From a virus (taxonomy: Duplodnaviria > Caudoviricetes): 60,033 nt of DNA. Position numbers and translations under genes: made by a program. Shown piece by piece: positions 2,890 through 52,067 of this stretch; within the stretch, counting starts at the first letter, position 1, and each line of letters begins with the position of its first letter. Where the stretch lies: positions 1 through 60,033 of IMG/VR virus record IMGVR_UViG_3300037484_000683, one strand, 5' to 3'. The notes below the pieces were generated by a model. It was not told the DNA's origin and ran no database searches. It saw nothing but the letters and a program-made list of their open reading frames with translations.

Positions 2890-4572
2890 TCATCCCACAA
2901 AGACTCCTTGCTTAAATAATCTATTTGGAGCTACACACAAACAAAATCCATCACCATCATCAGGAGAGCGGCTAAACTTGTCCTTGAACTTCTCTTTTGA
3001 GACAAGTTGCTTTAAGTCCAGTCGGGATTGTCCGTTACTTGTTTTGATGACATACCCATATTGCCGTTCACACAAGTCCGTCTCAAGATTAGGAGACGGT
3101 GATAAAAGCCTGAGTACCTTTAATGCCTGCCCGGCGTGGTAATACATCTCAGTTACACTATCGGCAAACTTGTCGTTTTCCAGGGCGGTTCCATTATTAT
3201 GGACTTCAAAAACCTTAAAAAGATCAAACCAGCTTTGCAGGTCGGCATCCCGGCGCAAGTTGTCAACGCAAGTTGAATGGTAGCCCCCGCCGGCGTCAAC
3301 TCTGACCCATACCCGTTTGACACCCTTATCTCTCAACTTCTGGCAAGCCTTTTTGACGGCCAGGTAATAAGCAAAGCCATCTTGCTTGGCTATCTCGGTT
3401 TCTTTCCAAACCATGCCGGCGTGCCGGATATAGATCGTGCCTTTGTCGTTTCCATAGCGGGCCGCATCAACTCCTAGCCACGCCTCCTCTGGATTATCCC
3501 CATCATACGGGGGATTGCTAATAGCTGCCTCGTATCGCCCTGGTGGGCAGAATGTGTCATCGGTTCCTTTAGACGAAGCAATACCCAGGACGCGCCAGAG
3601 GGTTTCGAGCGTGGGCCGGTAAATGGCACCGGGTTGCCAGGGTAGTTCAAAGGTATAATCATCCGCATTGTGTTCGTTGACTACCTCGCAGTTTTCAAGC
3701 ATCCCGGCAACGTATTCACGTCTAACCGAGCCGGGGATTATCTCTTTATCCTCTAAAACATTGGGATGCTCCAAGCAACTAATCCGAAAGGATTTGACGT
3801 TTTCGCGCCGCCTGATTTTGTGCGCTTTACAGGTGGTGGTGCGAGGGTTTCGAAGGATCAAAACGATAACGATACCACCGGAGGCCATACTTTCTACCGC
3901 CTCCCAAATGAAACCGGGTATACCTTCGGCTTCATCTAAAACAAACATCAGGTATTTACCATGCTGCCCTTGCGCCCGTTCGGTTCCTGTGCCTTTGGCG
4001 TTGTTTGTGGCCTTACCCTTTACGAAATGATTGCCCTTATACTTGATACGCGGCTCTAAAAGCACCTCGCCGGGCAGGTTTTTACCATCTCTATCGGTGC
4101 GAATTTCTTTGAATAGCAAGTCATTGATCTGGTCATCACTTGGGGCAAAGCAGTAGATAATTGAGGGAGCAAAGCAATCAAAGAAGTGAGAAACAATACC
4201 GGCTGCCAGTTTGGTTTTGCCAACATTGTGACCGGCGTCAACCGATAACCAATTTTGAATAATTTGCCCCGGACGCCAGTATTCGAGATCATCAAGAGTG
4301 ATGTTACCTTGCTCAAAATCGTAACGCTCATGCTGCTGGCGGAGGGCTAAAATGTAAGCATCAAGTATCTCAGATTGCTTATGCCAGGGGGTCCAGCCCA
4401 AAAACTGTTGAATATAGCCGGGGTCAAAGCGGTAGGGGGTAAAGCGTTCATCAACCTGCTCTACCTCGCTCACCACCTCCGCCATAAACGCATCGGCCTG
4501 CGCTGAGGGCAATGATAAAAACCAGCGGGCTAAAGCGGGGTCAACCTGCGAAATGACATCACTCCGTAACAT
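2890..4572 (-). CDS. terL: Terminase large subunit
   Basis: Walker A AGHNVGKT, Walker B FVLDEAEG, nuclease motifs LGVDAARYGND and SPDDGD. Confidence 0.95.
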   Translation of the reverse strand: MLRSDVISQVDPALARWFLSLPSAQADAFMAEVVSEVEQVDERFTPYRFDPGYIQQFLGWTPWHKQSEILDAYILALRQQHERYDFEQGNITLDDLEYWRPGQIIQNWLSVDAGHNVGKTKLAAGIVSHFFDCFAPSIIYCFAPSDDQINDLLFKEIRTDRDGKNLPGEVLLEPRIKYKGNHFVKGKATNNAKGTGTERAQGQHGKYLMFVLDEAEGIPGFIWEAVESMASGGIVIVLILRNPRTTTCKAHKIRRRENVKSFRISCLEHPNVLEDKEIIPGSVRREYVAGMLENCEVVNEHNADDYTFELPWQPGAIYRPTLETLWRVLGIASSKGTDDTFCPPGRYEAAISNPPYDGDNPEEAWLGVDAARYGNDKGTIYIRHAGMVWKETEIAKQDGFAYYLAVKKACQKLRDKGVKRVWVRVDAGGGYHSTCVDNLRRDADLQSWFDLFKVFEVHNNGTALENDKFADSVTEMYYHAGQALKVLRLLSPSPNLETDLCERQYGYVIKTSNGQSRLDLKQLVSKEKFKDKFSRSPDDGDGFCLCVAPNRLFKQGVFVG

Positions 4573-5110
4573 CTTTGTCCTGTAGGATTGCTGCCTGTTG
4601 TGTCATTGCTCTAAATTGCCGCTTTGCTTCTTCCGCATCAATATTGGGGGGGAGTTTGTCACGCCAGGAGATTTCGACTTTATCATTATACATGCCGTGA
4701 TAGCGCATTATTTTATCAAGTGCGGCCTGAGCGTCGTAAAGTTCAAAATGGGTTTTATAATGAACTTTGCCATTCTTATCTTCGTAAACATCCATAGTCA
4801 GCCTTTTAATCAGATGGGATTTAGGGTGGTTTTTCAAATCCGCCATTAACTGAATATCGGCAAACTCGCCCAGGTCGCCCCGCGCGTGTTCAGATAGCCG
4901 GGTAAGGGCTTCATCGGCTGACATAAGACGCTCGTCTAACCGCAACCTGATGTAGTCCATTATCTGTACTTTTCTGTAGTTATCAGAGCCTATCTTTGCT
5001 AACGAAACATCGTTGCCATCATAGCCGGCCCGTCGGGCTGCCTCGGTTTTGTTGAAGGTTTCAAGGTAGGCATTGGCCCACGCTTTTTGCTTGTCTGTTA
5101 AATCTGCCAT
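4559..5110 (-). CDS. terS: Terminase small subunit
   Basis: N-terminal LTDKQKAWANAYL..NKTEAARRAGY HTH; upstream of terL. Confidence 0.9.
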   Translation of the reverse strand: MADLTDKQKAWANAYLETFNKTEAARRAGYDGNDVSLAKIGSDNYRKVQIMDYIRLRLDERLMSADEALTRLSEHARGDLGEFADIQLMADLKNHPKSHLIKRLTMDVYEDKNGKVHYKTHFELYDAQAALDKIMRYHGMYNDKVEISWRDKLPPNIDAEEAKRQFRAMTQQAAILQDKDVTE

Positions 5111-5160: not shown

Positions 5161-5880
5161 TTATTTAACCGCTATCCAGCCGGCAAAATTCATCCACCGC
5201 CAAAAACAATCAATATGATTAAATCCGGCCATCTTCAAAAGCTCCTCATTCCAGCGAGCCGTAACCGGAACTAACACCCCCTCAAGGCTTAATCGCTTGC
5301 GTTCTATTTGTTCCTGAGTATAGCCATTATGAGCTTTTAGACCGTAGTAGAGTTTTACCATTAGCTCATCTAACTCAGCATCAGCGCCTAACAGTTTTTC
5401 AACCAGGATCAAGGCGCCGCCAGGGGAAAGGTGTTTGTAAATATTCCTGATAATCCGCTGTCGGTATTCAATCGGTGTAAACTGCAAAGTTAGAACACAA
5501 AGGGTGACGCTTGAATAAACTGGGGGGTAATCCGTTCTTAAATCAAGCTGCCTGATGTCTACCGTCTTGCTATTGATATAGCCCTCAAACCGGCTGCGAC
5601 AAGCCTCTAACATTGGCAAGCTAACTTCTACGCCGATGAAGCGATTACCAGCGCCGTATTTATCAATAAGCTCTGCTATAGCCTCACCCCGGCTACAGCC
5701 CAGGTCTACAATATCGGTGTTAGGTTGCCGGTACTGGCAAGCAATATCAAGGCAGGCTTGACGCATCACGGCGTACTGAGGGATTGACCGGGCCAGCATA
5801 TCATCAAAGACGTGAGTTACATCAGGATCAAATTCCCACTTGCCGACGGGTAGGGTTTGGTCAATCATTTGAGTTTGCAT
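5161..5880 (-). CDS. cmoA: CmoA-like carboxy-SAM synthase (class I SAM fold)
   Basis: WEFDPDVTHVFDDMLARSIPQY, DLGCSRG, LTLQF, GYTQEQIERKRLSLEGV and NFAGWIAVK follow CmoA family patterns. Confidence 0.85.
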   Translation of the reverse strand: MQTQMIDQTLPVGKWEFDPDVTHVFDDMLARSIPQYAVMRQACLDIACQYRQPNTDIVDLGCSRGEAIAELIDKYGAGNRFIGVEVSLPMLEACRSRFEGYINSKTVDIRQLDLRTDYPPVYSSVTLCVLTLQFTPIEYRQRIIRNIYKHLSPGGALILVEKLLGADAELDELMVKLYYGLKAHNGYTQEQIERKRLSLEGVLVPVTARWNEELLKMAGFNHIDCFWRWMNFAGWIAVK

Positions 5881-7448
5881 AGTATCTCATCTCTAATTAC
5901 CTGAGCCACCGCCGCCATCATCACCGGAGGCACAGCCCGCCCCAATCGCTCCCATTGCTGACTGTAGGTTCCTGTTAGTTGAAAGTCATCAGGAAAGGCA
6001 CAGATACGCTTAAGTTCGGCAATGGTGAATTTTCGCTTTTCGGTCAGTCCGGCCTTGTAGACAAGGCCGGACTGACCTCTGCCGTGTGTCATTATCGTAG
6101 GAACAACATCGTTAGGCCCAAATTCTCGCTCCGCCCCTGTTACAGCATTCCAACCGCTTTCAGGCTCAACTACCCAATGAGTCCCTATGCTATCGCTTAG
6201 AACAGTTGGCGCGGGTTGGTCGGTAATATCACCATCATTGCCAAAAGCCCCGCGCTTATCTCGATAAGCGCGGGTTTCAACTTCAAATTGTCCTGACCCG
6301 CCGCCGGCTATAATAGTCGGTGCGAGCGCGGCGAGATTGTCAATCTCGCCGCGCTGTGAAGAGTGACCATTTTTGCCACCCTGTTTTATTTGCGCCTCAA
6401 CTAGCGCAGGCGGGAAACGTCCGTTTCCCGCCTGCGCTCCTGTTCCTATTGTGCCGCTTGGGTGTTGCCCGGCGTCTTGCCAGCCGCCACCGCCAAAACC
6501 GCCATTGTCTCCCTGCCTGACAATCCAGGGAATAGCCTCTCTGACACTATACCGATATGTTAACGGCTTCGGGTAAACCGGCTCTAAGCCCAAATCATTT
6601 CGCACCCCGATAAAGATAATCCGCTGCCTCATCTGTGGGACGCCTAACCACTGGGCGTCAAGTAGTTTAGCTTTGACGTTGTAACCACAATCTTTTAGCT
6701 CCTGTAGGATTAGCTTAAAGTATCCTTTTGCTGTTCCCTTGACAAGCCCGCTGACATTTTCGGCTACAAAGACTTTAGGCTGTAACCCATTTAGGATTCG
6801 GGCGTATTCAAAGAACAGATCATCAGTGCGCTGTTTGGTATCGCTATAGTTTTTGACTTTACCCCAACCGGCCTCACGCTTGCCCGCCGTTGAGAACGAA
6901 GCGCACGGCGGGGAGCCGTCCATTAGATCAAGTTCACCAGCCTTTAATCCGATTGCTTCTAATATTTCCCCTGGCTCGACCGCGCGAATATCACGGGTAT
7001 CTAAAATTGATCCGGGGTGGTTAAGCCGGTAAACCTCCTGGGCTGCCGGGATAAACTCGGAAGCCCATAGGACTTTGAAGCCGGCCATGCGATAGCCCAA
7101 ACAGCTACCGCCACAGCCTGAAAATGTACTTATGGCAGTAAAGCCATTCCAGGGTAGGGCGGCTATATCGGTCATTAGAGGGACTTGGTAAGGGGGTTTA
7201 TTTTCTACTCGCTGCTTTGTCATTTTGCCATCATTTTCTATGTAATACCTTACCGACCTATTGGCCTGCACCGTTGGAAACGGCTTGTCAGTCACATCTA
7301 CAAATAAGTGACCGCTGCCCCCCCCGCGTAACCTTAGACCATTGGCATCTTCAACAAAGATGCGCTGATTATTTCGGCTGGCCGGCCCATTCGTATCCAC
7401 ATTTTGGGCAACAGTACGCGGTTTCAATATCTTCACCATATTCTCCAA
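5865..7448 (-). CDS. C5 cytosine DNA methyltransferase fold, predicted carboxymethyltransferase
   Basis: FSGCGG, GSPPC, ENV and QMRQR motifs; motif X reads GRAV instead of GNAV; start position uncertain. Confidence 0.9.
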   Translation of the reverse strand: MENMVKILKPRTVAQNVDTNGPASRNNQRIFVEDANGLRLRGGGSGHLFVDVTDKPFPTVQANRSVRYYIENDGKMTKQRVENKPPYQVPLMTDIAALPWNGFTAISTFSGCGGSCLGYRMAGFKVLWASEFIPAAQEVYRLNHPGSILDTRDIRAVEPGEILEAIGLKAGELDLMDGSPPCASFSTAGKREAGWGKVKNYSDTKQRTDDLFFEYARILNGLQPKVFVAENVSGLVKGTAKGYFKLILQELKDCGYNVKAKLLDAQWLGVPQMRQRIIFIGVRNDLGLEPVYPKPLTYRYSVREAIPWIVRQGDNGGFGGGGWQDAGQHPSGTIGTGAQAGNGRFPPALVEAQIKQGGKNGHSSQRGEIDNLAALAPTIIAGGGSGQFEVETRAYRDKRGAFGNDGDITDQPAPTVLSDSIGTHWVVEPESGWNAVTGAEREFGPNDVVPTIMTHGRGQSGLVYKAGLTEKRKFTIAELKRICAFPDDFQLTGTYSQQWERLGRAVPPVMMAAVAQVIRDEILCKLK

Positions 7449-7917
7449 AGTCCTCCGGCGACTCTACTTGCCGATCAAGCAACCCATTAGCCGCTCGCAA
7501 CCGCAGCGACTCCAACATCCCGGCCAGCCCCGGCCTATCCGCTGTCATGGCGCGGGTGCGTTCAAGCAGCAGTGCCAACTTTTCGGGGATAGGCTGGGCT
7601 TGCTCGGTGATGGCATCGTGAATTTGCAGGGCTAGTAATTCCTCATCAGGCGTCAAGTCGTAATAGTCAACGGGGATTTGTAACGCCGGGTCTTTAACTA
7701 GGGCGCGGGTTACTCGCAAATGACCATCAAATATACGGTTCGTGGATATGTTTACCTTAACGCTGCCAACCCAGCCCAGCAGATCAAGGCTATCGTCAAG
7801 TGATTCGGCTTGCGCCTCTGGATGGCCCCGCCAATTCGCCTCGTTGAACTTATGGGCTAATTCCTCCGCTGTCTCATAGCCGATTTTAACGCGCCGATCT
7901 TCCCAGATGTCATTCAC
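7369..7917 (-). CDS. ParB-like N-terminal domain protein with C-terminal Zn ribbon
   Basis: NWRGHP, IFDGHLR, CPKCGYEW; typical neighbour of phage methyltransferases. Confidence 0.75.
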   Translation of the reverse strand: MNDIWEDRRVKIGYETAEELAHKFNEANWRGHPEAQAESLDDSLDLLGWVGSVKVNISTNRIFDGHLRVTRALVKDPALQIPVDYYDLTPDEELLALQIHDAITEQAQPIPEKLALLLERTRAMTADRPGLAGMLESLRLRAANGLLDRQVESPEDFGEYGEDIETAYCCPKCGYEWAGQPK

Positions 7918-9409: not shown

Positions 9410-9940
9410 TTACTCTTTTTCCTCTGCCACAAAATCAGCCCTGGCCAGCGCGATTCCGGCCTCAAGCGCCCTGACGATCACGTAAGAATTTCCTGCAATA
9501 ACGGCGTAGTAGACTTCATTGACCAGAGCCTGCTCGCCCAGGCCGTTCATCAGCCGTGACAGTGCGCCCTTATTCCGGGCCAACAGGTAGGCAACAATGC
9601 TCTTTAGTTCGTCCGCCTCAAAGGGCTTGTCGAGAAAAGTAATAGCCCCCGACTCGATCAGGGTTTGGCTTATTTCGGCTGGGTTGGTATGTCCCGATAT
9701 TGCCAGAATTGGCATACCGGCCAGGCTAGGATTATCGTGTAAGATTTTGCAAACTTCCGGCCCGTCTGGCTTGCTACCGAGATGGATGTCCAAAACGACC
9801 AGACTGGGCTTGGCCAGCTTGACCAGCCGCAGCGCGTCAAGGCCGGTTGATGCCTCAACTACCATGTGCTCATCGGCCAGTACGTGCCGGATAAAGCCGC
9901 GTACCAGGTCCTCATCATCAATCACCAATATCAGCGCCAT
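9410..9940 (-). CDS. Response regulator receiver-domain protein
   Basis: ILVIDDE, VVLDIHL, AISG and LDKPF receiver motifs. Confidence 0.9.
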   Translation of the reverse strand: MALILVIDDEDLVRGFIRHVLADEHMVVEASTGLDALRLVKLAKPSLVVLDIHLGSKPDGPEVCKILHDNPSLAGMPILAISGHTNPAEISQTLIESGAITFLDKPFEADELKSIVAYLLARNKGALSRLMNGLGEQALVNEVYYAVIAGNSYVIVRALEAGIALARADFVAEEKE

Positions 9941-10482
9941 GCGTCTATCTCCGCTTCCAAATCATCTATCTCGTTCAATATTTCCGGCGGGGACGCTATC
10001 CCCATTTTGGCCGCCTGTTCCTTGAGCCGTTGCAATCGTCTCATTTTGGCTATTTTCTCACTGTGATCACCCGTTAGAGTCAGCGTATCGAAACGCCGGT
10101 TGGCCGCTTCCTGCGCCTGTCGAAGGGCCATCAGGCCGGAAAGTTTGTCGTGAAGCTTTGGATAATTCGGAGGCTTCTCAATATAGCCATCTGCCCCCAA
10201 GCGGGCAGCGCGTTCGCGGCTGATCTTGTCCCCAAAAGCCGAAAGTACAACAACCGGCGTGTTTGGGTCTCTTCGCTTGATAGCTTCCAGAACCACAAAT
10301 CCGCTGACTACTGGTAATCGCAAGTCTAAAATCACCCCATCGAACGTTTCGCTGTCCAGCTTTTGAATCGCCTCATCACCCCGCGTCACTAGCGTCACCC
10401 GCATGCCGCCGTAGCTCTCCAAAATGGCCTGAGCAATAAAGCCGTTTTGATCTTCCACCAGTAGTACGGCCTTCGCTTTCAT
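9931..10482 (-). CDS. Response regulator receiver-domain protein with helical C-terminal module
   Basis: VLLVED, ILDLRLPVVSG, VLSA and IEKP motifs. Confidence 0.9.
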   Translation of the reverse strand: MKAKAVLLVEDQNGFIAQAILESYGGMRVTLVTRGDEAIQKLDSETFDGVILDLRLPVVSGFVVLEAIKRRDPNTPVVVLSAFGDKISRERAARLGADGYIEKPPNYPKLHDKLSGLMALRQAQEAANRRFDTLTLTGDHSEKIAKMRRLQRLKEQAAKMGIASPPEILNEIDDLEAEIDAWR

Positions 10483-10769
10483 TCCGGCGGTCCCGGACTT
10501 AGACTGGCGCTCAGGGTTTGAATCTGTTCAAGTGCAGCCAACAGCTTGGCTTCGAGGATAAGTTTCTCACCCTGAAGCCTGAAATTATCGGTTGTTAAAG
10601 TCTTGTTTTCCTCAGTCAGTCGCCGCCGTTCCTGGCGCTGGTCTCTACGATCAATGTAAGATACTACCGCACCGCCCAGGGCGAAAAGCACCACCACCCC
10701 GAACGCCAGAACCAAAACACCGAAGACAAGATACTCACTGACGGGAAACTCCCTTGACAACAATTCCAC
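10479..10769 (-). CDS. Single-pass membrane protein with coiled coil (holin- or spanin-like candidate)
   Basis: One hydrophobic segment followed by a heptad-rich tail. Confidence 0.55.
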   Translation of the reverse strand: MELLSREFPVSEYLVFGVLVLAFGVVVLFALGGAVVSYIDRRDQRQERRRLTEENKTLTTDNFRLQGEKLILEAKLLAALEQIQTLSASLSPGPPE

Positions 10770-10883
10770 AGCATCTTAACATTTAGCCTTAAGGTGTGAT
10801 ATAATGCCTTAAGGCCAGGCATCCTCTTTGCCTGCGTTTAGCCGGGGCGATTTGCTTCAACACTTCGCCCCGGCGATGGCCAA

Positions 10884-11111
10884 CTATTCGCTGGTGTGAA
10901 AATCTACATAGATAGCCACGCCCAGCTTGAACTGCTTCAAGGCTGCGGGGTTGTCTACCGTCATTTCAATGCGTCCGGTGGGTGTGGCTTTTGAATAGGC
11001 CGCATCCTCTGATAATTCGGGGTCATATTGCGCCGTAAAAACAAGGGTGCGCCCGTCGCCCCCATAGGAATTTTGAGTAATTGATTGCAGAGTGAATTTA
11101 CCGCGTACCAT
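10884..11111 (-). CDS. Hypothetical phage protein
   Basis: AGGAG RBS before ATG at 11111; ORF track 10884..11144. Confidence 0.7.
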   Translation of the reverse strand: MVRGKFTLQSITQNSYGGDGRTLVFTAQYDPELSEDAAYSKATPTGRIEMTVDNPAALKQFKLGVAIYVDFHTSE

Positions 11112-11130
11112 GATGCTTCTCCTATGCCAA

Positions 11131-11178
11131 ACAAAAAAGGCCACAAAACCGGGCGCTCTGCCCAGTCCAGTGACCTTT
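11131..11178 (-). terminator. Intrinsic terminator-like hairpin in the leader of 10884..11111
   Basis: Minus strand AAAGGTCAC...GTGGCCTTT stem followed by a T-run. Confidence 0.6.
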
Positions 11179-11689
11179 GCAACTCAAATTATGGCCCAAT
11201 GCGGGCCGGATACCATTGCTCAATTTTCCTCCGGTAGGTGTGTTACCGGTGGTAGCGTGCTGGGGCGCTTGGCGGCTATCCTGGTGCGGATGCTGCGCCC
11301 CGTTGTAAAAGTTTGCCGGGATAACGCGCCCGGCTCGCGTCACGTGATTATATTTTCTTAGCCTATAAACGGCTTGAAATTCTGCTTAGAGTGCCGGTTA
11401 CGCTTTCCGGCTTGCCGTTCTACGACAACGCCCCCTTTGGGGACTGTAGGCTCTCGGCCCGTGTTCTTCGTGGGAACGGGTTGCTGCTGCCATTTTATCA
11501 TCTATATTTTAACGGGAGGGTTACGCCCGGCCTGTGAGCCGCCGGGTGGCTTTTACTCGCCTTGATCCCCCTGTCGTTGGGGGAGGCCCCTCCCAATGTG
11601 AATTGAGTTTTGCCGGGAAAATTATACCCCGCCCGGCTGAGGTAGCGACAACAGTTTAAAGAGTATGCCGCCTATATGGCCTCACTTAG

Positions 11690-11718
11690 AGTGTAGCACA
11701 GTTGTGCGGGTTTGTAAA
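11690..11718 (-). promoter_or_regulatory. Sigma70-type promoter candidate
   Basis: Minus strand TTTACA-17 nt-TACACT with a TG extension. Confidence 0.5.
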
Positions 11719-11736
11719 GCGGCTGATATATCAGCC

Positions 11737-11958
11737 TCACTCGATAACCCGCCGCGCCTCACCCCCGCTGTCCATCGGCTCCGCTGTCACCTCCCTGGCT
11801 ATCCCCTCGACAAAATAGGCGGCTATCCGGTAGGCCGTCTGGGGTGATGTGCCGAATAGTACGCAGGTATTTTTTGCCCATTCCCCGATTTCCAAAAGGG
11901 CATCGTTGCGGGTGGCAAGGTTTCTCAGGCGGGCGTTGATGCGTTGGGGGATGTTCAT
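11737..11958 (-). CDS. Hypothetical protein
   Basis: Coupled ORF in the minus-strand operon. Confidence 0.55.
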   Translation of the reverse strand: MNIPQRINARLRNLATRNDALLEIGEWAKNTCVLFGTSPQTAYRIAAYFVEGIAREVTAEPMDSGGEARRVIE

Positions 11959-12194
11959 TTAGCCACCACCCGCCGCGCCTCTGCTATCTGCGGCCCGGCG
12001 GCGCGGTCAACTAGCCAGTTGGGTTCGAGTTTATCCAGCCCGGCCAGCAAGGCCAGCAGCACCCGCCGCAGTTCCGCATTCTCCGCCGTCAGCGCGGCCA
12101 GGTCGCTGGCGAGCACTTGCGCGGTTTGCCAGCCGAGCGAGGGCTGCTGGGCCGGGGGGAGGTGGCCGCCGTAGGGTATTCTTCGTTCAGACAT
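11955..12194 (-). CDS. Hypothetical protein
   Basis: GGAGG RBS; coupled ORF. Confidence 0.6.
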   Translation of the reverse strand: MSERRIPYGGHLPPAQQPSLGWQTAQVLASDLAALTAENAELRRVLLALLAGLDKLEPNWLVDRAAGPQIAEARRVVAK

Positions 12195-12197
12195 TGG

Positions 12198-13769
12198 TTA
12201 GGTTCCTCCTGCAAACATAAAGGTTTGGGCGGCGTGAATTTCCTCAGCCGCTAAAATGGCTTTGGGGTCTGATTGGCCAAAGCGGAGCCAATCAGACCAC
12301 CATTCGAGGCGACGGCAGGCAATGCTGGCAAATTTTGGATCTATTTCTACCGCGAGCACTTCATCCCAACCGGCCAACAATGCTCCGATTGGAAGCGATC
12401 CCGTTCCGCTGGTGCAATCTATCATCCGCCGGGGGGCGTACTCAGCCGGCGGTAAGAATAGGCCCGAAATATGTTTGCACAATTTTATAGGCTTCAGCGT
12501 GGGGTGATTATTTTCTTGCCACGTCGTGGCGAATCGCGGTTCTCTTTCCAACCCGCCAGGATTGACCCGGTGGCGCTCCGATAGCGGCATGCCGGACAGG
12601 CCGGCGTTACGCTCGGCTACCTGGACTTTACCCGTGTAAAAAACGGGGTTTGTTTCGGCCAGGCGCTCGGTTATTTCGTGCGTCCAATCGGCCTGATAAA
12701 AATGATAACTCTTTTCATCACCCGTCTGCGCATCAAGGCGGGCCACCGGACAATCCGGGTGGCAGAGGTAGTCAGGGACAGCGATCATGCCGGAGGCGTC
12801 GCCTTTGGCCCTGTAGGGGGTATGTTTCTCCATTTTGTTGTAGATTCCATTTTTACCCATTGCCTGCCCAGGCGGGTCGACTACATCTCCGCTATTGTTT
12901 TTAATCATCTTCACCCCCCGATACTCGCAGCCCGGATGATGCGTTATCATCAGATGACCCGGATGACCACGCCCCGGCATACCGTTTTTACCGGCCTCGA
13001 TATTGACCGCGCCCGCGCCGGTTGCCGTGATGGTGTCTAGCCGGTCAAGGCCGTGCCATGGCGCTTGGGCGATTAGAATCGGCTCAAGCTCAGGAGCTAG
13101 GGGTGAGCCGTATTGATGGCCGGCCCAGGTGCGGGCGAGGGGGGAAAGCGGAGTCCCGTTTGAAATATCCCCCTTGCCTTTGACGTGGGGTACTATCTTG
13201 TCAAACGCTTCGGCCTTGCCATTTCGGTAATCACCGCCGCTATTTACCTTGCCCATATGCCCGCCGTTGATTCTGTCGGTTCGATTCGCCCCTGCCCGCT
13301 TATCAAGCAAAAGCCCCATATTTGTACCATTCGGTTTCCCGGACGAATATACCCAGCCAAGTTGATACAGCGCCGGATTCATCACATAGCCCGCGCAACG
13401 CTGGGCAAAAGCAAGTAAGTCCTGCTTGCGCGGGTGGCTGAAGCTGGCCGTAAATGCACCGGGGTGCAGGTGAGGCAACAGGGCGGCCCAAGTTTCGGGG
13501 CGATAGGCCAGATCAGTATCCCAACGAGCGCCCATAAAACCGGCCGATTGCCGCGCAAAGGCCCCGTCGCGGCCAAATTTAGCCGGGGCGCTATTAGGAT
13601 TGCCAAAACGTTTGGTTTGAGACTCCAGGTTATACGGCCAGTCATCAAAGCAAAAATGGAAAAAAGATTGCTCATACTGCCTCTGCCAGAGTGACCCGGC
13701 CAAGTAATCCAACACGTCACCCTGAACGACTGTCCACTTTTCGCCCTGGCCTATGATTTTATAACTCAT
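12198..13769 (-). CDS. Amino (N6A/N4C) DNA methyltransferase, beta class, with divergent motifs
   Basis: DWPY in place of DPPY, HPTLKP, DCTSGTGS and EID motifs in beta order. Confidence 0.8.
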   Translation of the reverse strand: MSYKIIGQGEKWTVVQGDVLDYLAGSLWQRQYEQSFFHFCFDDWPYNLESQTKRFGNPNSAPAKFGRDGAFARQSAGFMGARWDTDLAYRPETWAALLPHLHPGAFTASFSHPRKQDLLAFAQRCAGYVMNPALYQLGWVYSSGKPNGTNMGLLLDKRAGANRTDRINGGHMGKVNSGGDYRNGKAEAFDKIVPHVKGKGDISNGTPLSPLARTWAGHQYGSPLAPELEPILIAQAPWHGLDRLDTITATGAGAVNIEAGKNGMPGRGHPGHLMITHHPGCEYRGVKMIKNNSGDVVDPPGQAMGKNGIYNKMEKHTPYRAKGDASGMIAVPDYLCHPDCPVARLDAQTGDEKSYHFYQADWTHEITERLAETNPVFYTGKVQVAERNAGLSGMPLSERHRVNPGGLEREPRFATTWQENNHPTLKPIKLCKHISGLFLPPAEYAPRRMIDCTSGTGSLPIGALLAGWDEVLAVEIDPKFASIACRRLEWWSDWLRFGQSDPKAILAAEEIHAAQTFMFAGGT

Positions 13770-16560: not shown

Positions 16561-17595
16561 TTAGTACGGTATATCACTACACAAGATGTCCTCAGCCGCC
16601 CCCACCGCCGCCGCGCCCTGCTCTGCCCATAGCGTAGCTTGCTCTTTTACCGGCAGGTACTTAGCGAAGTCCCGGCGATATTCCAGCCAGGGAACAATTT
16701 TGTAATATCGGCGTACTGCCCAGCGTTGAAACTTCTTTAGCTCTTTATCCTGATTGTTATAGACCATTGGATAAGGCAGGATTCCCCGCGCTGTCATTCG
16801 CTCGAAGCGGTATAAAATCCGTTCCATTGTTTCAGACGGGTCAAAACCGATCAGCATATAAACCATTAAATGACTTGGGGGAATACCGGCCTGCTCTAAC
16901 CGGCCAACACCCTCAAAGAATATGCGCTCATCTCTGAGATTGTCCCAGGCTGTATATAATCGCCGGTTTTTGAATTGGTCATCATAATAGCGAATTTGAT
17001 TTAACCAGTAGGCCGCCTCATCTGTTACCAGCCGGATATTGATCCCCTGATTAAAGCAGACTTTGAAGCCGCCTGTTTTAATTTCTCCGATCCGCTGTAA
17101 CCATTGCTCTTTTGGCTGCCCAAAAAAGTCATTGTCCAGCAGGCAGACATGGCGCGGGGTATCGGGCCTCCAAATATCATAAATCGTATTGATAGACCGG
17201 GGCCGGCCTTCCTTTTTCGGCACAACGCAAAAGCCGCAATTTAGCCGGCACCCGCGCTGAGTAAATCCTATTGACCATTGATACTCAGGGTAGATTGAAT
17301 AATCATAGTGTTCATATTCAGTACCTATAATTTGCTCAATTGTTCCGGGGTTTCCGGTTCCGGTTCCCCCGACAACCGCGCCGGGCCATAGGGCTTTGAA
17401 TTGCTCGGTTCGTTTCTGGCTAAAGGTAAAGACGGTCGAACCATAAATAATATCGTATTCAGGCTCAAGAAAACTGCGGTTAATTCGCGGGGTAAAATAA
17501 ACCTCATCACCCCGGCTTTTGTGCCAATGGGCGAGCTTCATTAGGGCTAAATTTGGCAGCTTACCGTCAATGTGCGTTAGCCTAACTACTGTCAT
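16561..17595 (-). CDS. Radical SAM protein
   Basis: QRGCRLNCGFC (CxxxCxxC), N-terminal PNLALMKL, LLDNDF. Confidence 0.88.
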   Translation of the reverse strand: MTVVRLTHIDGKLPNLALMKLAHWHKSRGDEVYFTPRINRSFLEPEYDIIYGSTVFTFSQKRTEQFKALWPGAVVGGTGTGNPGTIEQIIGTEYEHYDYSIYPEYQWSIGFTQRGCRLNCGFCVVPKKEGRPRSINTIYDIWRPDTPRHVCLLDNDFFGQPKEQWLQRIGEIKTGGFKVCFNQGINIRLVTDEAAYWLNQIRYYDDQFKNRRLYTAWDNLRDERIFFEGVGRLEQAGIPPSHLMVYMLIGFDPSETMERILYRFERMTARGILPYPMVYNNQDKELKKFQRWAVRRYYKIVPWLEYRRDFAKYLPVKEQATLWAEQGAAAVGAAEDILCSDIPY

Positions 17596-18744: not shown

Positions 18745-19058
18745 TCCGCACCCTCCCCCGACAGCGCCTTAAGCAGTTGACTTTGCAAAACCAACCTGTC
18801 ACTTGCGTGATTTAACTGGACTTCCAGAGCGTGGTACGATCTCCGCATTTCCTCCAACTCCACCCGCGCCGGGTGCTGCTCACAGGTGCGCCAGTGGTCG
18901 AGCACCGCCGGATCATCATTCCAAAATGTAGTGCCACAATAGGCACAAGTGGCGGCAACCAGGTCAAGCCGGGCTTGTAGCTGGTCAACGGTGGATTGCT
19001 TAAAGAGCAGCTCAATTTGTAGCGCTTTGATTTTGGTGAGGAGTTCGGTTTTGGTCAT
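18741..19058 (-). CDS. Hypothetical protein with CxxC...HxxxC
   Basis: GGAGG RBS before MTKTEL. Confidence 0.6.
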   Translation of the reverse strand: MTKTELLTKIKALQIELLFKQSTVDQLQARLDLVAATCAYCGTTFWNDDPAVLDHWRTCEQHPARVELEEMRRSYHALEVQLNHASDRLVLQSQLLKALSGEGAE

Positions 19059-19747
19059 TGGGTGGCCTCCATCGCTTCGAGTAGTTGTTTCCCGATCCAT
19101 TCACAATATGCTGGGGGAATCGCCTGGGCCATTTCGTCTCTGGTCATCCAATCTATTTTCATTGCAACCCGTCCCGATTCGGCCTGAAAATTATGACCTA
19201 CACAGGTTATAAATTCCCGGTTTTTCAATTTGTGGTAAGCCCCCTTCGACGGGGGCATTTTGTAGCTATGATTGCAGGGAGCCGGGGGCCAGTAAATCGG
19301 GGGGTTGGTTTCAAACAGACGATGCCGGTAAACTCTCAGGCCGGGAAACATAGAACCACAGAGGGTTATCGGGTTGACAAGCGGGGCACCCTCTACGTTT
19401 TCGATTACGTAGGCTAGTCCGGTTTCCAGCAATAAATCACGTACCGGCCCAACCAGGTCAGGATGATTGCCATTAGAGAGGGAGGCGGTTACACTGTAAA
19501 ATTGACACGGTGGACTTGCGCTTATCGCTGCAAAATCCGATAGATACCAGCGCTGGCCAGTGTTGTCGGTGATGCAGCCGCCGGCAATGAGAATCCGCAA
19601 GCTCTCCAGGGCGTCCATTTGAACGAAGGGAAACGGGTAACGTGGCATAGGGGCAATATCAACCCCAACGACTTCAAAGCCGGCCTGATTGTAGCCAACC
19701 GAGCAACCGCCGGCCCCGCAAAAGGCGTCGAGCAGAAGCGGCTTCAT
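19055..19747 (-). CDS. Short C5 cytosine DNA methyltransferase
   Basis: LDAFCGAGG, ASPPCQ, IENV, RHRLFE. Confidence 0.88.
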   Translation of the reverse strand: MKPLLLDAFCGAGGCSVGYNQAGFEVVGVDIAPMPRYPFPFVQMDALESLRILIAGGCITDNTGQRWYLSDFAAISASPPCQFYSVTASLSNGNHPDLVGPVRDLLLETGLAYVIENVEGAPLVNPITLCGSMFPGLRVYRHRLFETNPPIYWPPAPCNHSYKMPPSKGAYHKLKNREFITCVGHNFQAESGRVAMKIDWMTRDEMAQAIPPAYCEWIGKQLLEAMEATQ

Positions 19748-20040
19748 CCCCTATCTACCTCCGCTAAAATCTTTACAATCCCCCGTACTCGCTCCCGTAT
19801 TGCCTCTAATGCTGCCTCTGCTCGTTTGTCTACTCTGTTGATTGCGCCAGTCTGCGCCCGGACCTGTATCCATAGCCATTCATCTTTTATGGCTAAAGAA
19901 ATCGGGTCGGTCTGGGTCAGTAAAGCGCGGTACGTTTTGGCCTGCGCTGCTATTTCTCGGCACCGGTCAACGACAAAGAGATTGGTATTGGTTGTCATTG
20001 ATACAATGTGCAGAAATTGGCCTATGATAGATTGCGTCAT
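19744..20040 (-). CDS. Hypothetical protein
   Basis: ATGA coupling on both sides. Confidence 0.6.
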   Translation of the reverse strand: MTQSIIGQFLHIVSMTTNTNLFVVDRCREIAAQAKTYRALLTQTDPISLAIKDEWLWIQVRAQTGAINRVDKRAEAALEAIRERVRGIVKILAEVDRG

Positions 20041-20963
20041 ACCTGCACCGCCTGAAACATCGGCAAATGGCTATAATCGCTATCTAGCGCCTTGACAGTC
20101 CGGGGCGATAGCCAGAGGCTTTCAATCCGCTTGCCGCCACTGTTCGTCTGCGCTTCTTTGTCTACCCGTCGCCAGCCGTGTGCCTCGTAAAGCTCGGCAT
20201 ACAGCGGGCAGGCGTAGCCGGAAACGACCACGTAGCCGAGGGCAGAGCGGAGGAGGGCAGCGGCTTCTATGTGGAAAGCCCTATCAACTTCTAGGGTGTA
20301 ATTATTCCCGTGACTTCTTTCTTCGAGGACATAAGGTGGATCAAAATAAATCAAGGTATCAAAATGGTCATATCTTGTTATAACTTCAATGGCTGGCCTA
20401 TTTTCCATTTGAACCTCAATCAGCCGACTGGCTATTGTCCACAAATCATCAAAATATAAACCATACGGATAACCCTTATCGTTTATAGCCACCTTCCAAC
20501 TGCTACCACTTTTGGTATTCGCCGCACCATCCATAGACATCCAGCACAGGCAGAAGAATCGCCGGGCGGCCTCTAGCGGGTCGTCAACCGGTTGCCATGC
20601 GTTGTCAAACTCAGCCCGCGCCCTGGGCGTCAGGCGGATTTTTCTAATCAACTCGTCCGGCCTGTCTCTCAGCATTCTAAAGAAATTGACCACGTTGCCG
20701 TCAAGGTCGTTTATTGTCTCTAAAGGGCTTCTAGGTTTTCGGAGTAATACGGAGCAAGCGCCCGCGCATGGTTCGACATAATTCTGATGCGGAGGAAAAA
20801 AACTTATAATCCACGGTGACAGCTTCCATTTGCCGCCAAAGTAGCGGAGCGCTGGGCGTTTGATTTCTTCGGATAGTGGTTCACTCAGGGCCACTTGGGC
20901 CGCCGTTTCCAGCGATGAATCGAGGGGATTTTTAAGCTCTGAGGGGGTGGGATTTATTGACAT
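20037..20963 (-). CDS. Dam-like (D12 class) N6-adenine DNA methyltransferase
   Basis: YFGGK, YVEPCAG, INDLD, YFDPPY. Confidence 0.92.
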   Translation of the reverse strand: MSINPTPSELKNPLDSSLETAAQVALSEPLSEEIKRPALRYFGGKWKLSPWIISFFPPHQNYVEPCAGACSVLLRKPRSPLETINDLDGNVVNFFRMLRDRPDELIRKIRLTPRARAEFDNAWQPVDDPLEAARRFFCLCWMSMDGAANTKSGSSWKVAINDKGYPYGLYFDDLWTIASRLIEVQMENRPAIEVITRYDHFDTLIYFDPPYVLEERSHGNNYTLEVDRAFHIEAAALLRSALGYVVVSGYACPLYAELYEAHGWRRVDKEAQTNSGGKRIESLWLSPRTVKALDSDYSHLPMFQAVQV

Positions 20964-28631: not shown

Positions 28632-29519
28632 ATGGGAATGGATACAGAGATTTCTTGGGCGGACGCGTCTTTCAATCCCTGGGTGGGCTGCTTCAAAGTT
28701 TCCCCCGGCTGCAAACATTGTTACGCTGAAACATTTATGACTCGCAAAAGCCGCTGGGCCAACACCTGGGGACCGCCGGAAACAACGGAGCGCATCAGAA
28801 CCAGCGCGGCGAATTGGGCCAAACCTTTACAATGGGATAGGCAGGCTCAAAAAGAGGGCCGCCGGATAAAGGTATTCTGCGCTTCATTAGCAGATGTTTT
28901 TGAGGATAATATACAGGTCAGAAGTTGGCGACTTGATCTATTTATGTTGATCTCAGATACCCCTAATCTGGATTGGCAGATTTTGACCAAGCGGCCCGAA
29001 TTTGCCAGAGAGTTTTTTGAGCAGCACCCCGGCTTTTTGTTGCCGAATGTCTGGCTAGGCACTTCAATAGAAAATCAGGAGCAAGCCGACAAACGGATAC
29101 CCGAACTGCTGAGAATACCGGCGGCGATTCGTTTCCTGAGTGTGGAGCCGTTAATTGGGCCGGTAGACTTGCTGAGTGTGGACTCTCGCCAGGATGCCAG
29201 GTTAATCGTAAATTATCGCAGGGTAATTGACTGGGTTATCGTTGGCGGCGAATCTGGCCCCAACTCTCGCCCGATGCATCCCGATTGGGCGCGGTCAATC
29301 AGGGACCAATGCATGGCGGCAGGCGTAGCTTTCCACTTTAAGCAATGGGGAGAATTTTTACCTGATGGGCAAGAGATGTCATATAGAAAGGGTAATTTAT
29401 ACAGAGACTATGGCCGTATTCTTTCGTCCGGTGGAAAATTCTACAATGTCGGTAAACACGCCGCCGGTCGCTTACTGGATGGCCGGGAGTGGAATGAGAT
29501 GCCAACCCCCCGCCCGTAG
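28632..29519 (+). CDS. Phage Gp37/Gp68 (DUF5131) family protein
   Basis: NPWVGCFKVSPGCKHCYA, LTKRP, NVWLGTSIE, WVIVGGESG, FHFKQWG. Confidence 0.93.
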   Translation: MGMDTEISWADASFNPWVGCFKVSPGCKHCYAETFMTRKSRWANTWGPPETTERIRTSAANWAKPLQWDRQAQKEGRRIKVFCASLADVFEDNIQVRSWRLDLFMLISDTPNLDWQILTKRPEFAREFFEQHPGFLLPNVWLGTSIENQEQADKRIPELLRIPAAIRFLSVEPLIGPVDLLSVDSRQDARLIVNYRRVIDWVIVGGESGPNSRPMHPDWARSIRDQCMAAGVAFHFKQWGEFLPDGQEMSYRKGNLYRDYGRILSSGGKFYNVGKHAAGRLLDGREWNEMPTPRP

Positions 29520-49072: not shown

Positions 49073-50313
49073 ACCAACCCCCGCCCTGATAGCTCGCTCA
49101 TCAATTGCTGTGGTATTTTCTTGGCATCCCATTCGCCGGGCTTTTTACCCTCACCCCCGATAGCATTGGCGTAAACCAGAGGAGGATGCTTGCAACCCAA
49201 TATCAACCCGTCAAACTCGCCCTTTTCTCTGGCTTCGATTATTCGCTTTGTGCCTAGTTTCTCAAATTGCCAGGCGTTTTCTTTTGGATCCAAAAACCTG
49301 AGTAAAAAGCCTTTGCGCCAGATAGCCGCCTGCAAGCTGGCTTGAAAAGGAGCGTCATTGGTGGATTGGATAAACAATTCACTAAGCTGATTATGGGGCA
49401 CTTTGGCCCTATCGCCGGCCAGGTCTATTTTAGCAACCTCTGGGTGTTGGCTCATAAAATCCCAAACCGACTGAATAGCCTTAGCTCCTACCGGCTCGGT
49501 TAAAAAGTAATCTTCCAACATCAGCAAAATCAACTCACCATTATATTGGGTCAGATATTTTATCAAACCACTTGACCACGTGTAATCAGCCTGATTGCCA
49601 ATGGCCCAATTCGTAAAATTGCCGGGTAGGTTATAGGGTCGTTTCTCATACCTGACCACCTTGACCGGCTGCCCACCTCCCCAAAACTTATTAAACAAAT
49701 AAGCAAACGGCGGCAAGCAGTGAAGGTAGTCGTTGGAGGTCAGGACCGTTACCTCTAACTTGTCAGGCTCAACAAAGCGCCTGACTATCGACATAGCCTT
49801 TACTGGCATAGCGATAATAGCCGCCTGCCAGATGACCATTTCATAGCCAGCAGGTAAGGCCGCTTTGACTTCATCCAATGTCGGCCATTTGGCAGCGTTA
49901 TATGGCGACTTGACCGGCTCAACAAAGTAGCGGGCATCGTCAATTAGAATGAGGTGAGGTAAGCCCGTTTCTTTAATGGCAGTCAGTTCTGCTAATAGCG
50001 GACATTCCTCTGTCAACACAGCCGGTTTGTCCTTGCATCTATGGGCATCTAGCCAAAAAATAGCAGGCTTCTTAAGCCGCTTGACTACTTTGGGCAACTC
50101 AACCGCGCTGTCGCCGTGAATAAGTCTGGCCTTAATGTCCAACCCCACCGCCCGGTTATAATAGCCCTCATCAATTTCAATGCTGACCACTTTGGGGAAA
50201 CTATCAGCCGCCCAGCGGGTGGTGTAGGCTTTGAAAATGCCGGTCTCAACGAAAGTAGAGATATTAAAAGCGTCTCGCAACGCCAGGGTTAAATCTTCCA
50301 ATTCTTTACGCAA
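49069..50313 (-). CDS. Methyltransferase-like domain fused to a GT-A glycosyltransferase-like domain
   Basis: FVETG, HGDS, FWLDAH, ILIDDAR; then LLMLEDYFL, SLQAAIW, AWQFE. Confidence 0.75.
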   Translation of the reverse strand: MRKELEDLTLALRDAFNISTFVETGIFKAYTTRWAADSFPKVVSIEIDEGYYNRAVGLDIKARLIHGDSAVELPKVVKRLKKPAIFWLDAHRCKDKPAVLTEECPLLAELTAIKETGLPHLILIDDARYFVEPVKSPYNAAKWPTLDEVKAALPAGYEMVIWQAAIIAMPVKAMSIVRRFVEPDKLEVTVLTSNDYLHCLPPFAYLFNKFWGGGQPVKVVRYEKRPYNLPGNFTNWAIGNQADYTWSSGLIKYLTQYNGELILLMLEDYFLTEPVGAKAIQSVWDFMSQHPEVAKIDLAGDRAKVPHNQLSELFIQSTNDAPFQASLQAAIWRKGFLLRFLDPKENAWQFEKLGTKRIIEAREKGEFDGLILGCKHPPLVYANAIGGEGKKPGEWDAKKIPQQLMSELSGRGLV

Positions 50314-51157
50314 TGCCTAGCTCCTCTTGTAAAATCACTCGCAACTGCCGCGCCCGCATGCTCCATGCGTGGTACTTGGCGACTAATCGTTTACCCCACC
50401 TGGCCCGCTCCTGCCACTCGCCACTATCCAAAAGGTAATCGCAGACGGTAGGAATATCGTCAAGGTGCTTCACCTCTACATAGTCGCGGCCCGGCACTCG
50501 CTCGTCGCCGGATATAGCCGGGATTGGACCGGTAACGAGGCAAGCCCCGCAGGATAGCGCATCAAAGACCCGGTGGGGGCGATTGCCGGGCACTCTGGGC
50601 CAGTTGACCACGATCTTGCTTTGGGCCATAGCGCGGGCATAGTCCACTATATTGAGCGTGCCGGTAGCAAAGTTCAAGCCTCGTTCTTTGTAATAAGCCC
50701 TCAACATATTCCGTAGCCGGCCCCGCTCCTCGTTGCTGCCACAGTAGAATGACACGTCAATATCTCGTTTGGATTCATAATCCCGCATCAACCTATCGTT
50801 TACGCAATAATTCCAGCGTCTAACCGGTTTGCCCAGATGAGTGAAGCGGTCGAGGCTGTCGTGATCCACTAAAATCAAATCGGCGTTTTTGGCCCGCTGT
50901 AAACGTGATTCCAAATGGCCTTCTGACAAAGTGCTGTCAATCACCACGTAGACCAGCGGCTTGTGTAGGCCGGCGTACCGTTTTGGCCCCGCATCCTCCT
51001 GAATGACAATATCAAATTTGTTGAGCGCATCAGCGTTAAGCCCATCAAAATGAGTCCACTTAAATTCAGGCACCGCGTATGAAAAATAGCCCATATTGCG
51101 ACAATCACGCTCCTGGGTAGACGGGGCAGACTTGACCACCAAAGCCACGTTAATCAA
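50306..51157 (-). CDS. GT-B glycosyltransferase (CgeB-like)
   Basis: DVSFY, SKIVVN, RVFDALSCGACLVT. Confidence 0.8.
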   Translation of the reverse strand: MINVALVVKSAPSTQERDCRNMGYFSYAVPEFKWTHFDGLNADALNKFDIVIQEDAGPKRYAGLHKPLVYVVIDSTLSEGHLESRLQRAKNADLILVDHDSLDRFTHLGKPVRRWNYCVNDRLMRDYESKRDIDVSFYCGSNEERGRLRNMLRAYYKERGLNFATGTLNIVDYARAMAQSKIVVNWPRVPGNRPHRVFDALSCGACLVTGPIPAISGDERVPGRDYVEVKHLDDIPTVCDYLLDSGEWQERARWGKRLVAKYHAWSMRARQLRVILQEELGIA

Positions 51158-52067
51158 GGCGCAAATGCTCCCCTACATAACCAAGCCAGCCAGGGAAGAG
51201 TAGGTATTTCTCTGCCCATTGCCGGCTATGTTTTCCCCACTCAATTACACGGGCACGGTCCAGGCACAAGGTACGCAATTCCTGGTATAGCCCATTTTCA
51301 TCATAGGCTTTAACAACTGGCGGAGCCGGGAAAAATCCTTCCAAATATTCCTCACCGCGTAAGGCCGTGATGACTACTGAGCCAAAAGCCAATGCCTCTT
51401 CACCACTGCGGCCCAGGCCCGCCGGCATATCGATGTCGGGGATTTGGTCAATAAAAATGTGGGCCTTGCGCTTTTGGGCTAAACATTCTCGCCAGGGCAG
51501 ATTGAGCAATGAGGTATAAACCAGGTCGGGGAACTCCTGTTTTAATTGATCTACCACCCGCTCTATTTTGTCAGTCCCTTTGAGCTTGCGCTTATTCTCA
51601 GTTCGAGGGGAGTGCATAATCTGTAAGGGGTAGGGCTTGTCAATATCCCACCCAAAATCCAGCACCGGATGACACAAGGGCACGGCCCAGGCAGCAGCCT
51701 TATCCATTAAATCCATCATGGCAAAGGTGGTTTTCACCTCAAGCATTTCGGCTATGTGCTTGAAATAATGTGGCTCTTGCCAGTAGGCAGTATCACCCCA
51801 AAAGGCTACCCAATTCGCCTTAGTCGGCATTAGTAAATCCAGCGATACGCCCAGGCCAGCAGCGTCGGCAATCATCGTAAAGCGTGAGGATTCAATGAGA
51901 CTGCGGCAATAATCGGCATTAGCACGGGTCAAAATAATATCTTCTTCCCCTGGCCAAAGGGGGTGTGTTTCCAGGGTGATAAGCCGTGTTTCTTCCCACA
52001 TTGAAAAGGCCCGGCGCAGATTGTAAGCCGCCCCAAAAGTGGGGTTAAGGGCGAGTATTGTTATCAT
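51150..52067 (-). CDS. GT-B glycosyltransferase-like protein
   Basis: HSP...KGT, HIFIDQI, GRSGEEALAFG. Confidence 0.78.
   Translation of the reverse strand: MITILALNPTFGAAYNLRRAFSMWEETRLITLETHPLWPGEEDIILTRANADYCRSLIESSRFTMIADAAGLGVSLDLLMPTKANWVAFWGDTAYWQEPHYFKHIAEMLEVKTTFAMMDLMDKAAAWAVPLCHPVLDFGWDIDKPYPLQIMHSPRTENKRKLKGTDKIERVVDQLKQEFPDLVYTSLLNLPWRECLAQKRKAHIFIDQIPDIDMPAGLGRSGEEALAFGSVVITALRGEEYLEGFFPAPPVVKAYDENGLYQELRTLCLDRARVIEWGKHSRQWAEKYLLFPGWLGYVGEHLRLD

Follow-up and report, generated by a model that had tools for sequence, protein, structure and literature searches.

A phage-encoded CmoA/CmoX-type gene pair predicted to write 5-carboxymethylcytosine, with repeated modules resembling target-recognition domains in the CmoX homologue

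The natural CmoA/CmoX system of DNA modification was described from Synechococcus phage S-B43 (Yang et al., Nat Commun 2025, December 2025; PMC12783734). In this phage, SpCmoA converts S-adenosylmethionine (SAM) and prephenate to carboxy-SAM (Cx-SAM); SpCmoX writes 5-carboxymethylcytosine (5cxmC) in the context GpC, which renders the DNA HhaI-resistant; SpCmoY ligates glycine onto 5cxmC (PMC12783734). The Arg-350 of SpCmoX replaces Asn-304 of M.HhaI and binds the carboxymethyl group. The wild-type enzyme uses Cx-SAM only, and its R350N mutant shows no activity with either cofactor, SAM or Cx-SAM (PMC12783734). The same study collected 5,615 candidate CmoX proteins from databases including IMG/VR v4, using SPPC and R350 as the criteria; these were accompanied by 4,257 CmoA, 2,251 ligases and 1,660 ParBc-domain neighbours, and the sequence specificities of the other candidates remain to be determined according to its authors (PMC12783734). 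Here a further case was analysed in the IMG/VR virus record IMGVR_UViG_3300037484_000683, which is classed as linear and estimated by CheckV to be about 92% complete. The whole 60,033-b stretch is called the window below. Its minus strand carries a CmoX homologue overlapping a CmoA homologue, and the pair is very probably a CmoA/CmoX-type module by which the phage carboxymethylates cytosines of DNA after replication; 5cxmC is probably the final mark, and it likely has an anti-restriction role. Because a system of this kind was published in 2025, the novelty of the locus is low, and the record may well be among the 5,615 candidates.

The pair was pointed out by a sequence-only reading, which proposed that a CmoA-like synthase and a C5-methyltransferase with Arg in motif X form a 5cxmC pathway, and allowed for an earlier description of such pairs in phages. 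The pathway is supported by homology to the S-B43 system, and a similar pair has indeed been described (PMC12783734). The features of the pair are as follows; residues of the CmoX homologue are numbered on its 527-amino-acid form unless otherwise stated.

5865..7448, minus strand: CmoX-type DNA cytosine C5-carboxymethyltransferase homologue (PF00145 and 8yf3 SpCmoX matches)
6903..6914, minus strand: motif IV SPPC with the catalytic Cys182 (alignment to SpCmoX S95-P96-P97-C98)
5937..5939, minus strand: Arg504 codon CGG in motif X, aligned to SpCmoX R350; predicted Cx-SAM carboxylate binder
5161..5880, minus strand: CmoA homologue (carboxy-SAM synthase), 239 amino acids (TIGR00740, 4gek and SpCmoA matches)
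5293..5295, minus strand: CmoA Arg196 codon, equivalent to E. coli CmoA Arg-199 (alignment)
5865..5880, minus strand: 16-nt overlap of the CmoX stop and the CmoA start (sequence reading)

The CmoX open reading frame (ORF) encodes 527 amino acids from a TTG codon, and the database gene call gives 524 amino acids from an ATG at 7439. This ATG is the likely start, and a GGAGGA is found 11 nt upstream of it in the sequence. Profile searches identified the protein as a C5-methyltransferase homologue (PF00145, E 3.7e-55; TIGR00675, 173.8 bits with a cut-off of 100.65). The top sequence match in the PDB was 8yf3, SpCmoX (E 8.9e-67), followed by M.HaeIII (1.4e-24); the PDB entry 8YF3 is entitled 'DNA cytosine C5-carboxymethyltransferase in complex with Cx-SAM'. 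BLASTP against SpCmoX gave 34% identity (E 3e-73). The AlphaFold2 (AF2) model, with a mean predicted local distance difference test score (pLDDT) of 74.5, was also closest to 8yf3 in a Foldseek search against the PDB (rank 1, E 4.2e-23), and the leading matches were 8yf3, M.HaeIII and M.HhaI.

At its C terminus the translated homologue contains WERLGRAVPPVMM, and the LGRAVPP of the sequence-only reading was found exactly, with its Arg codon at 5937-5939 (ccg on the plus strand, thus CGG on the minus strand). In the HMMER alignment it stands with VGRMVPP of SpCmoX and IGNAVP of M.HaeIII. Because LGRAVPP aligns to the IGNAVP of M.HaeIII, the window Arg occupies the position of the motif X Asn of the family, as had been claimed. 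The other cofactor residues are conserved as well. SpCmoX F25, E47, F48, D69 and C98 correspond to F109, E131, F132, D153 and C182 of the window CmoX in the BLASTP alignment, the last within GSPPCASFS, and SpCmoX R350 corresponds to R504 in both the BLASTP and HMMER alignments; every Cx-SAM contact named in PMC12783734 is kept. A conservation alignment of 115 sequences from among the closest homologues, numbered on the 524-amino-acid form (R501 is R504 of the 527-amino-acid form), showed that the Arg column R501 and the F/E/F/D contact columns are invariant. S176, P177 and P178 are also invariant, and the catalytic C179 is nearly so. The residues that contact the cytosine, namely the Glu of the motif VI ENV and the R-x-R of motif VIII, are invariant too. 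Among the best 120 homologues, motif X reads GR[AS]VP in 119 and GRVVP in the remaining one, and SPPC is present in 119. The homology and the conserved residues are direct observations, and they support the assignment of 5865..7448 as a CmoX-type enzyme with a predicted carboxymethyltransferase activity. Reversion of the Arg to Asn, which had been suggested as a check, is unlikely to yield a 5-methylcytosine (5mC) enzyme, because SpCmoX R350N accepted neither SAM nor Cx-SAM.

The partner gene was matched over residues 12-239 of 239 by TIGR00740 (E 1.8e-50, 171.9 bits), and by the CmoA structures 4gek (E. coli, E 1.2e-36) and 1im8 (H. influenzae, E 1.7e-34). It is 29% identical to the biochemically validated SpCmoA (E 6e-26). 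The CmoA hallmarks ascribed to it are retained: IERKRLSLEGV is present, and its K195-R196 align to K198-R199 of E. coli CmoA. Arg-199 is described in PMC4482062 as the sole residue touching the Cx-SAM carboxylate in E. coli CmoA. SpCmoA carries Glu at this position in the alignment; since SpCmoA is validated, the KR motif is not essential to the activity of phage CmoA. The gene 5161..5880 is therefore best described as a carboxy-SAM synthase homologue, which would be expected to form Cx-SAM.

The two minus-strand ORFs overlap, in agreement with the sequence-only reading, and share 16 nt (5865..5880); the overlap shrinks to a 4-nt ATGA if the second ATG of CmoA is used as start. Because of this overlap the genes are probably translationally coupled. 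The pairing is also conserved in related viruses. Synteny was sampled in 56 related IMG/VR loci searched by tblastn, several of which are truncated, so that absences are soft. A CmoA-like gene stands near CmoX in 49 of the 56. A different explanation would be that the CmoX homologue is an ordinary 5mC enzyme or inactive, and that CmoA serves another purpose, such as draining host SAM to counter SAM-dependent defences or modifying tRNA. The Discussion of PMC12783734 puts SAM depletion forward as a question to be answered, and the CmoA homologue scores below the NCBIfam cut-off. However, Cx-SAM is the only cofactor taken by wild-type SpCmoX, and the Arg does not vary within the family; moreover, an overlapping and widely conserved CmoX-CmoA pairing is hard to explain without a shared cofactor. 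As for tRNA, no match to CmoB (PF08003) was found in the record, which argues against a tRNA role of the gene pair. This explanation is thus very improbable, and a shared role of the two genes in DNA carboxymethylation is preferred.

The window was also searched for the third component, the ligase. No PF00733 (Asn-synthetase-like) match was found anywhere in the record (about 92% complete); tblastn with SpCmoY and with the ligase of Streptomyces phage TurkishDelight gave nothing in the window at E 1e-5; and Pfam and PHROG scans of 49 window ORFs revealed no ATP-dependent ligase. The locus is therefore read as a two-component CmoA/CmoX form without a ligase. Because no CmoY-type ligase was found, 5cxmC itself is probably the end product and does not serve as an attachment point for glycine or an amide. 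The locus illustrates the common ligase-less form of CmoA/CmoX, with 5cxmC as the would-be end product. On the other hand, 5cxmC might be only an intermediate, which is converted to a further hypermodified base by a ligase from the missing ~8% of the genome or by some enzyme without relationship to CmoY. In S-B43, 5cxmC was termed a 'handle', and only the glycine amide was found in the native DNA (PMC12783734). A ligase lies near CmoX in 16 of the 56 related loci (5 of the SpCmoY type and 11 of the TurkishDelight type), the record is not closed, and among the other phage genes are those of a radical SAM protein, a DUF5131 protein and two glycosyltransferases, all without an assigned role. However, in the ligase-bearing relatives the ligase is located between or directly beside CmoX and CmoA, whereas the window genes overlap and leave no room for it. 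A ligase was lacking from 40 of the 56 related loci, although some of these are truncated, and ligases were reported in only 2,251 contigs compared with 5,615 CmoX (PMC12783734). The candidate hypermodification enzymes of the window are located far from the module, and the glycosyltransferases are among structural genes. A further modified base is therefore unlikely, and 5cxmC remains the favoured final mark.

The following pathway is proposed. CmoA (5161..5880) would convert host SAM and prephenate to Cx-SAM. CmoX (5865..7448) would flip the target cytosine and attack its C6 through Cys182 of SPPC, and would then move the carboxymethyl group of Cx-SAM to C5, while the motif X Arg504 would hold the carboxylate of the cofactor. 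The predicted product is 5cxmC, which would probably shield the phage DNA against host restriction. Several points weigh against this proposal. The functions are deduced from homology at 34% (CmoX) and 29% (CmoA) identity. The GpC specificity of SpCmoX is not transferable to the window CmoX, because the variable region differs greatly between the two. The AF2 model has a pLDDT below 50 over residues 355-388 and 424-462 of the 524-amino-acid form, which lie within the modules V2 and V4 described below. The CmoA homologue, at 171.9 bits, stays below the curated NCBIfam cut-off of TIGR00740 (193.3); however, this cut-off is uninformative for phage CmoA, because the validated SpCmoA scores only 115.6 bits (the TurkishDelight homologue scores 89.5 bits). 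Finally, a ligase or another follow-on enzyme could be encoded in the missing ~8% of the genome, or could belong to an unrecognised family.

Multispecific phage C5-methyltransferases with tandem or separated target-recognition domains (TRDs) are known, in which each TRD provides one specificity. The window CmoX is 150 amino acids longer than SpCmoX, and the extra residues are found in an N-terminal extension of about 75 amino acids and in a variable region of about 180 amino acids. The extension and the variable region together consist of five modules of 38-45 amino acids (N and V1-V4), which are located as follows.

7230..7364, minus strand: TRD-like module N, residues 29-73, PFPTV core, before motif I (second BLASTP high-scoring segment pair)
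6045..6578, minus strand: variable (target-recognition) region, residues 291-468, with four tandem modules
6393..6527, minus strand: module V1 (boundaries from homologue alignment and module census)
6276..6392, minus strand: module V2 (boundaries from homologue alignment and module census)
6159..6275, minus strand: module V3 (boundaries from homologue alignment and module census)
6045..6158, minus strand: module V4 (boundaries from homologue alignment and module census)

Four of the modules have a P-T-[IV] core (PFPTV, APTI, PAPTV and VPTI), and the fifth has GTI. The TL motif of C5-methyltransferase TRDs is given as (YFW)x(RK)x5-P(STCA)PT(ILV)(TASV)x5-16-H(PFYWL) in PMC2413257; the strict consensus P[STCA]PT[ILV][TASV] is matched in full by none of the five window modules. 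The PT[ILV] pattern occurs four times in the 256 non-core residues, compared with 0.19 expected from composition, and none of 20,000 shuffles reached four; it does not occur in the CmoX catalytic core. At least two cores of the PT[ILV] type are present in 80 of the 120 closest homologues, and SpCmoX has one. BLASTP aligned V3 to the single TL-motif TRD of SpCmoX, and its second high-scoring segment pair aligned module N to that end of the SpCmoX target-recognition region which holds the TL motif. When the module classes were compared profile against profile, the alignments fell on the TL core, at probabilities between 0.1 and 91%, which is consistent with divergent modules that share only this core. 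In the AF2 model, strands are found at the module borders, and V2 and V4 are unreliable; the 10-residue block means are about 57-77 over residues 21-70 of the 524-amino-acid form, which is roughly module N.

The modules are arranged in 27 different ways among the 120 homologues. An N-type module is located ahead of motif I in 12 of them and inside the variable region in 10. Natural C5-methyltransferases with a TRD ahead of motif I exist, as stated in PMC5944983. These results hint that the modules resemble TRDs which are shuffled among homologues, and that the enzymes might have either several specificities or one extended specificity. It might even be that the window CmoX and most of its close relatives are modular multispecific carboxymethyltransferases, in which phages shuffle interchangeable TRD units and so broaden or alter the cytosine contexts to be given 5cxmC, and 5cxmC serves as a dense, protective terminal mark in ligase-less phages; this wider proposal is tentative, and we consider it possible but rather doubtful. 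The terms TRD and multispecificity do not occur in the text of PMC12783734, and the observation of TRD-like modules goes beyond that study. If the modules set the specificity, natural CmoX variants for non-GpC contexts might be useful to the engineered-enzyme sequencing chemistry presented in PMC13288465. A separate observation concerns the homologue P0028 (648 amino acids), in which a second C-terminal block (the TRD end, motif IX and the motif X GRAVPP) is located ahead of motif I. Judged by its arrangement, P0028 looks like a duplication intermediate toward a circularly permuted methyltransferase.

The window is a tailed-phage genome of roughly 60 kb and siphovirus-like, in which a portal, a MuF-like protein, a capsid, a prohead protease and a tail protein were identified among the structural genes. 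The locus extends the CmoA/CmoX system to a phage of this kind. The minus-strand order is ParB-like, CmoX, CmoA, small terminase and large terminase. The genes flanking the pair are as follows.

7369..7917, minus strand: ParB-like protein, 182 amino acids, first gene of the module (phrog_620 and phrog_498 matches)
4559..5110, minus strand: small terminase subunit, the next gene downstream, context and not part of the pathway (PF03592, E 1.9e-19)
2890..4572, minus strand: large terminase (phrog_2 match)

The ParB-like protein was matched over residues 25-177 by phrog_620 'ParB-like partition protein' (E 6.5e-8), and also by phrog_498; Pfam, including PF02195, gave no match to it even at E <= 1. 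Its C-terminal 27 amino acids match TurkishDelight gp122 'ParB-like nuclease domain protein' (E 8e-9), and its tail has a C-terminal CxxC and is zinc-ribbon-like. ParBc-domain neighbours of CmoX were also noted by Yang et al. (PMC12783734). In the synteny sample, a ParB-like gene is located upstream of CmoX in 49 of the 56 loci, and a terminase related to that of the window is located downstream of CmoX in four. The ParB-like and CmoX ORFs share 71-80 nt (7369..7448), which is an unusually long overlap. In relatives (locus L007) the N module of CmoX opens with a Met located close to where the ParB-like gene ends; the window has Gln there, and all upstream CmoX starts in the window are inside the ParB-like gene. 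Two other readings were considered. A later start at Met76 would skip the N module; it was rejected because the N module, which is intact in the window, is a conserved unit in other homologues and because of the GGAGGA before the ATG at 7439. A frameshift fusion of ParB and CmoX was unsupported, as the relatives have separate genes which are adjacent or slightly overlapping.

Among cultured phages, CmoA-like genes were found in 82 of 50,697 records and CmoX-like genes in 142; each of the two sets includes 48 Erwinia records. In Pseudomonas phage PaBG, the CmoX-like and CmoA-like genes are about 400 bp apart. Close relatives were also found in metagenome-assembled genomes of Roseiflexaceae, Limisphaerales, Armatimonadetes and Rhizobiales.

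The base composition of the window is unremarkable (GC about 0.47-0.56), and a tRNA scan and an Rfam scan of the window gave no matches. About 1.4 kb at 10769..12198 has no ORF of at least 90 amino acids on either strand, and no tRNA or Rfam match was found there either. Counting CmoX, four putative DNA-modifying transferases are encoded in this 60-kb phage. The gene at 19055..19747 (minus strand) encodes a second C5-methyltransferase-like protein, which is very short (230 amino acids; phrog_363 'DNA methyltransferase', E 2.6e-28; weak PF00145 match). It has the motif I FCGAGG, SPPC and ENV, and no recognisable variable region; AQAIPP stands at the place of motif X, without an Arg. Because of this second protein without the motif X Arg, the phage may also make 5mC. 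The other two are a candidate Dam-like N6-adenine methyltransferase of the D12 class at 20037..20963 (minus strand; PF02086, E 7e-20), and a putative amino-methyltransferase-like protein of 523 amino acids at 12198..13769 (minus strand), which contains a DWPY motif and a large insertion and matches phrog_67 weakly.

Two stand-alone response-regulator receiver-domain proteins are encoded at 9410..9940 and 9931..10482 (both minus strand; PF00072, E 4e-20 and 3e-22). This pair lies upstream, with a few genes between it and the ParB-like/CmoX/CmoA module, and it is an unusual cargo for a phage. The two glycosyltransferase-like genes among the structural genes are at 50306..51157 and 52064..53698 (both minus strand), and the product of the latter seems to combine a GT1/GT4-like with a GT8-like domain. 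Both genes may act in the glycosylation of virion proteins; no link of the two to DNA modification was found. The radical SAM protein is encoded at 16561..17595 (minus strand; phrog_9298, E 4e-49), and the DUF5131 protein at 28632..29519 (plus strand; PF07505, E 2e-90).

Comparison with the known systems showed both similarities and differences. The S-B43 and window phages both encode a Cx-SAM synthase homologue together with a C5-methyltransferase homologue having SPPC and the motif X Arg, the CmoX fold is the same, and the named Cx-SAM contacts are all kept. However, the CmoX proteins share only 34% and the CmoA proteins only 29% identity, and no CmoY ligase was found in the window. The gene order in S-B43 is CmoA, CmoY and CmoX among replication genes; whereas in the window the order is ParB-like, CmoX and CmoA beside terminase genes. 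The window CmoX has 524-527 amino acids compared with 372 in SpCmoX; it includes the N-terminal extension of about 75 amino acids, the variable region of about 180 amino acids and four PT[IV] cores, whereas SpCmoX has one core. The window CmoA keeps the bacterial R199, where the SpCmoA of S-B43 has Glu. The closest CmoX of a cultured phage was found in the gp121-gp125 region of Streptomyces phage TurkishDelight, where it is annotated only as 'methyltransferase'. With 49% identity across 84% of the query, this homologue shares GRAVPP and SPPC with the window CmoX. The TurkishDelight order is ParB, ParB, methyltransferase, amidotransferase-ligase and methyltransferase (CmoA-like); the ligase between CmoX and CmoA, which resembles glutamine amidotransferases and asparagine synthetases, has no counterpart in the window. 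Moreover, the TurkishDelight CmoX has no PT[ILV] core by regular-expression search, whereas the window CmoX has four.

The window enzyme is also similar to M.MpeI N374K, in which a basic motif X residue allows the use of Cx-SAM to give 5cxmC (PMC13288465 and PMC12783734). M.MpeI N374K was made in the laboratory by mutation of a CpG methyltransferase and has Lys; whereas the window enzyme is natural, has Arg, and is accompanied by its own cofactor synthase. In the E. coli CmoA/CmoB pathway for tRNA cmo5U, EcCmoA is 34% identical to the window CmoA, which is full-length and keeps R199; however, the window phage has no CmoB, with a DNA C5-methyltransferase homologue as the acceptor enzyme instead. 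The biology is notable in that a tRNA-modification cofactor appears to have been borrowed by a phage for writing a carboxylated base into DNA. The modular organization of the window CmoX resembles that of the multispecific enzymes of SPR, phi3T, rho11s and H2, and of M.phiBssHII and M.BssHII, with short P-x-P-T-[ILV] modules in tandem and one module before motif I. SAM is the cofactor of the SPR/phi3T-type and BssHII-type enzymes, and their motif X contains Asn, whereas the window CmoX has Arg. If the proposal of modular multispecific carboxymethyltransferases is true, these proteins would be the first counterpart in nature, with a switched cofactor, to multispecific methyltransferases of the SPR/phi3T type, and would represent a ready-made toolbox of carboxymethyltransferases with differing sequence specificities.

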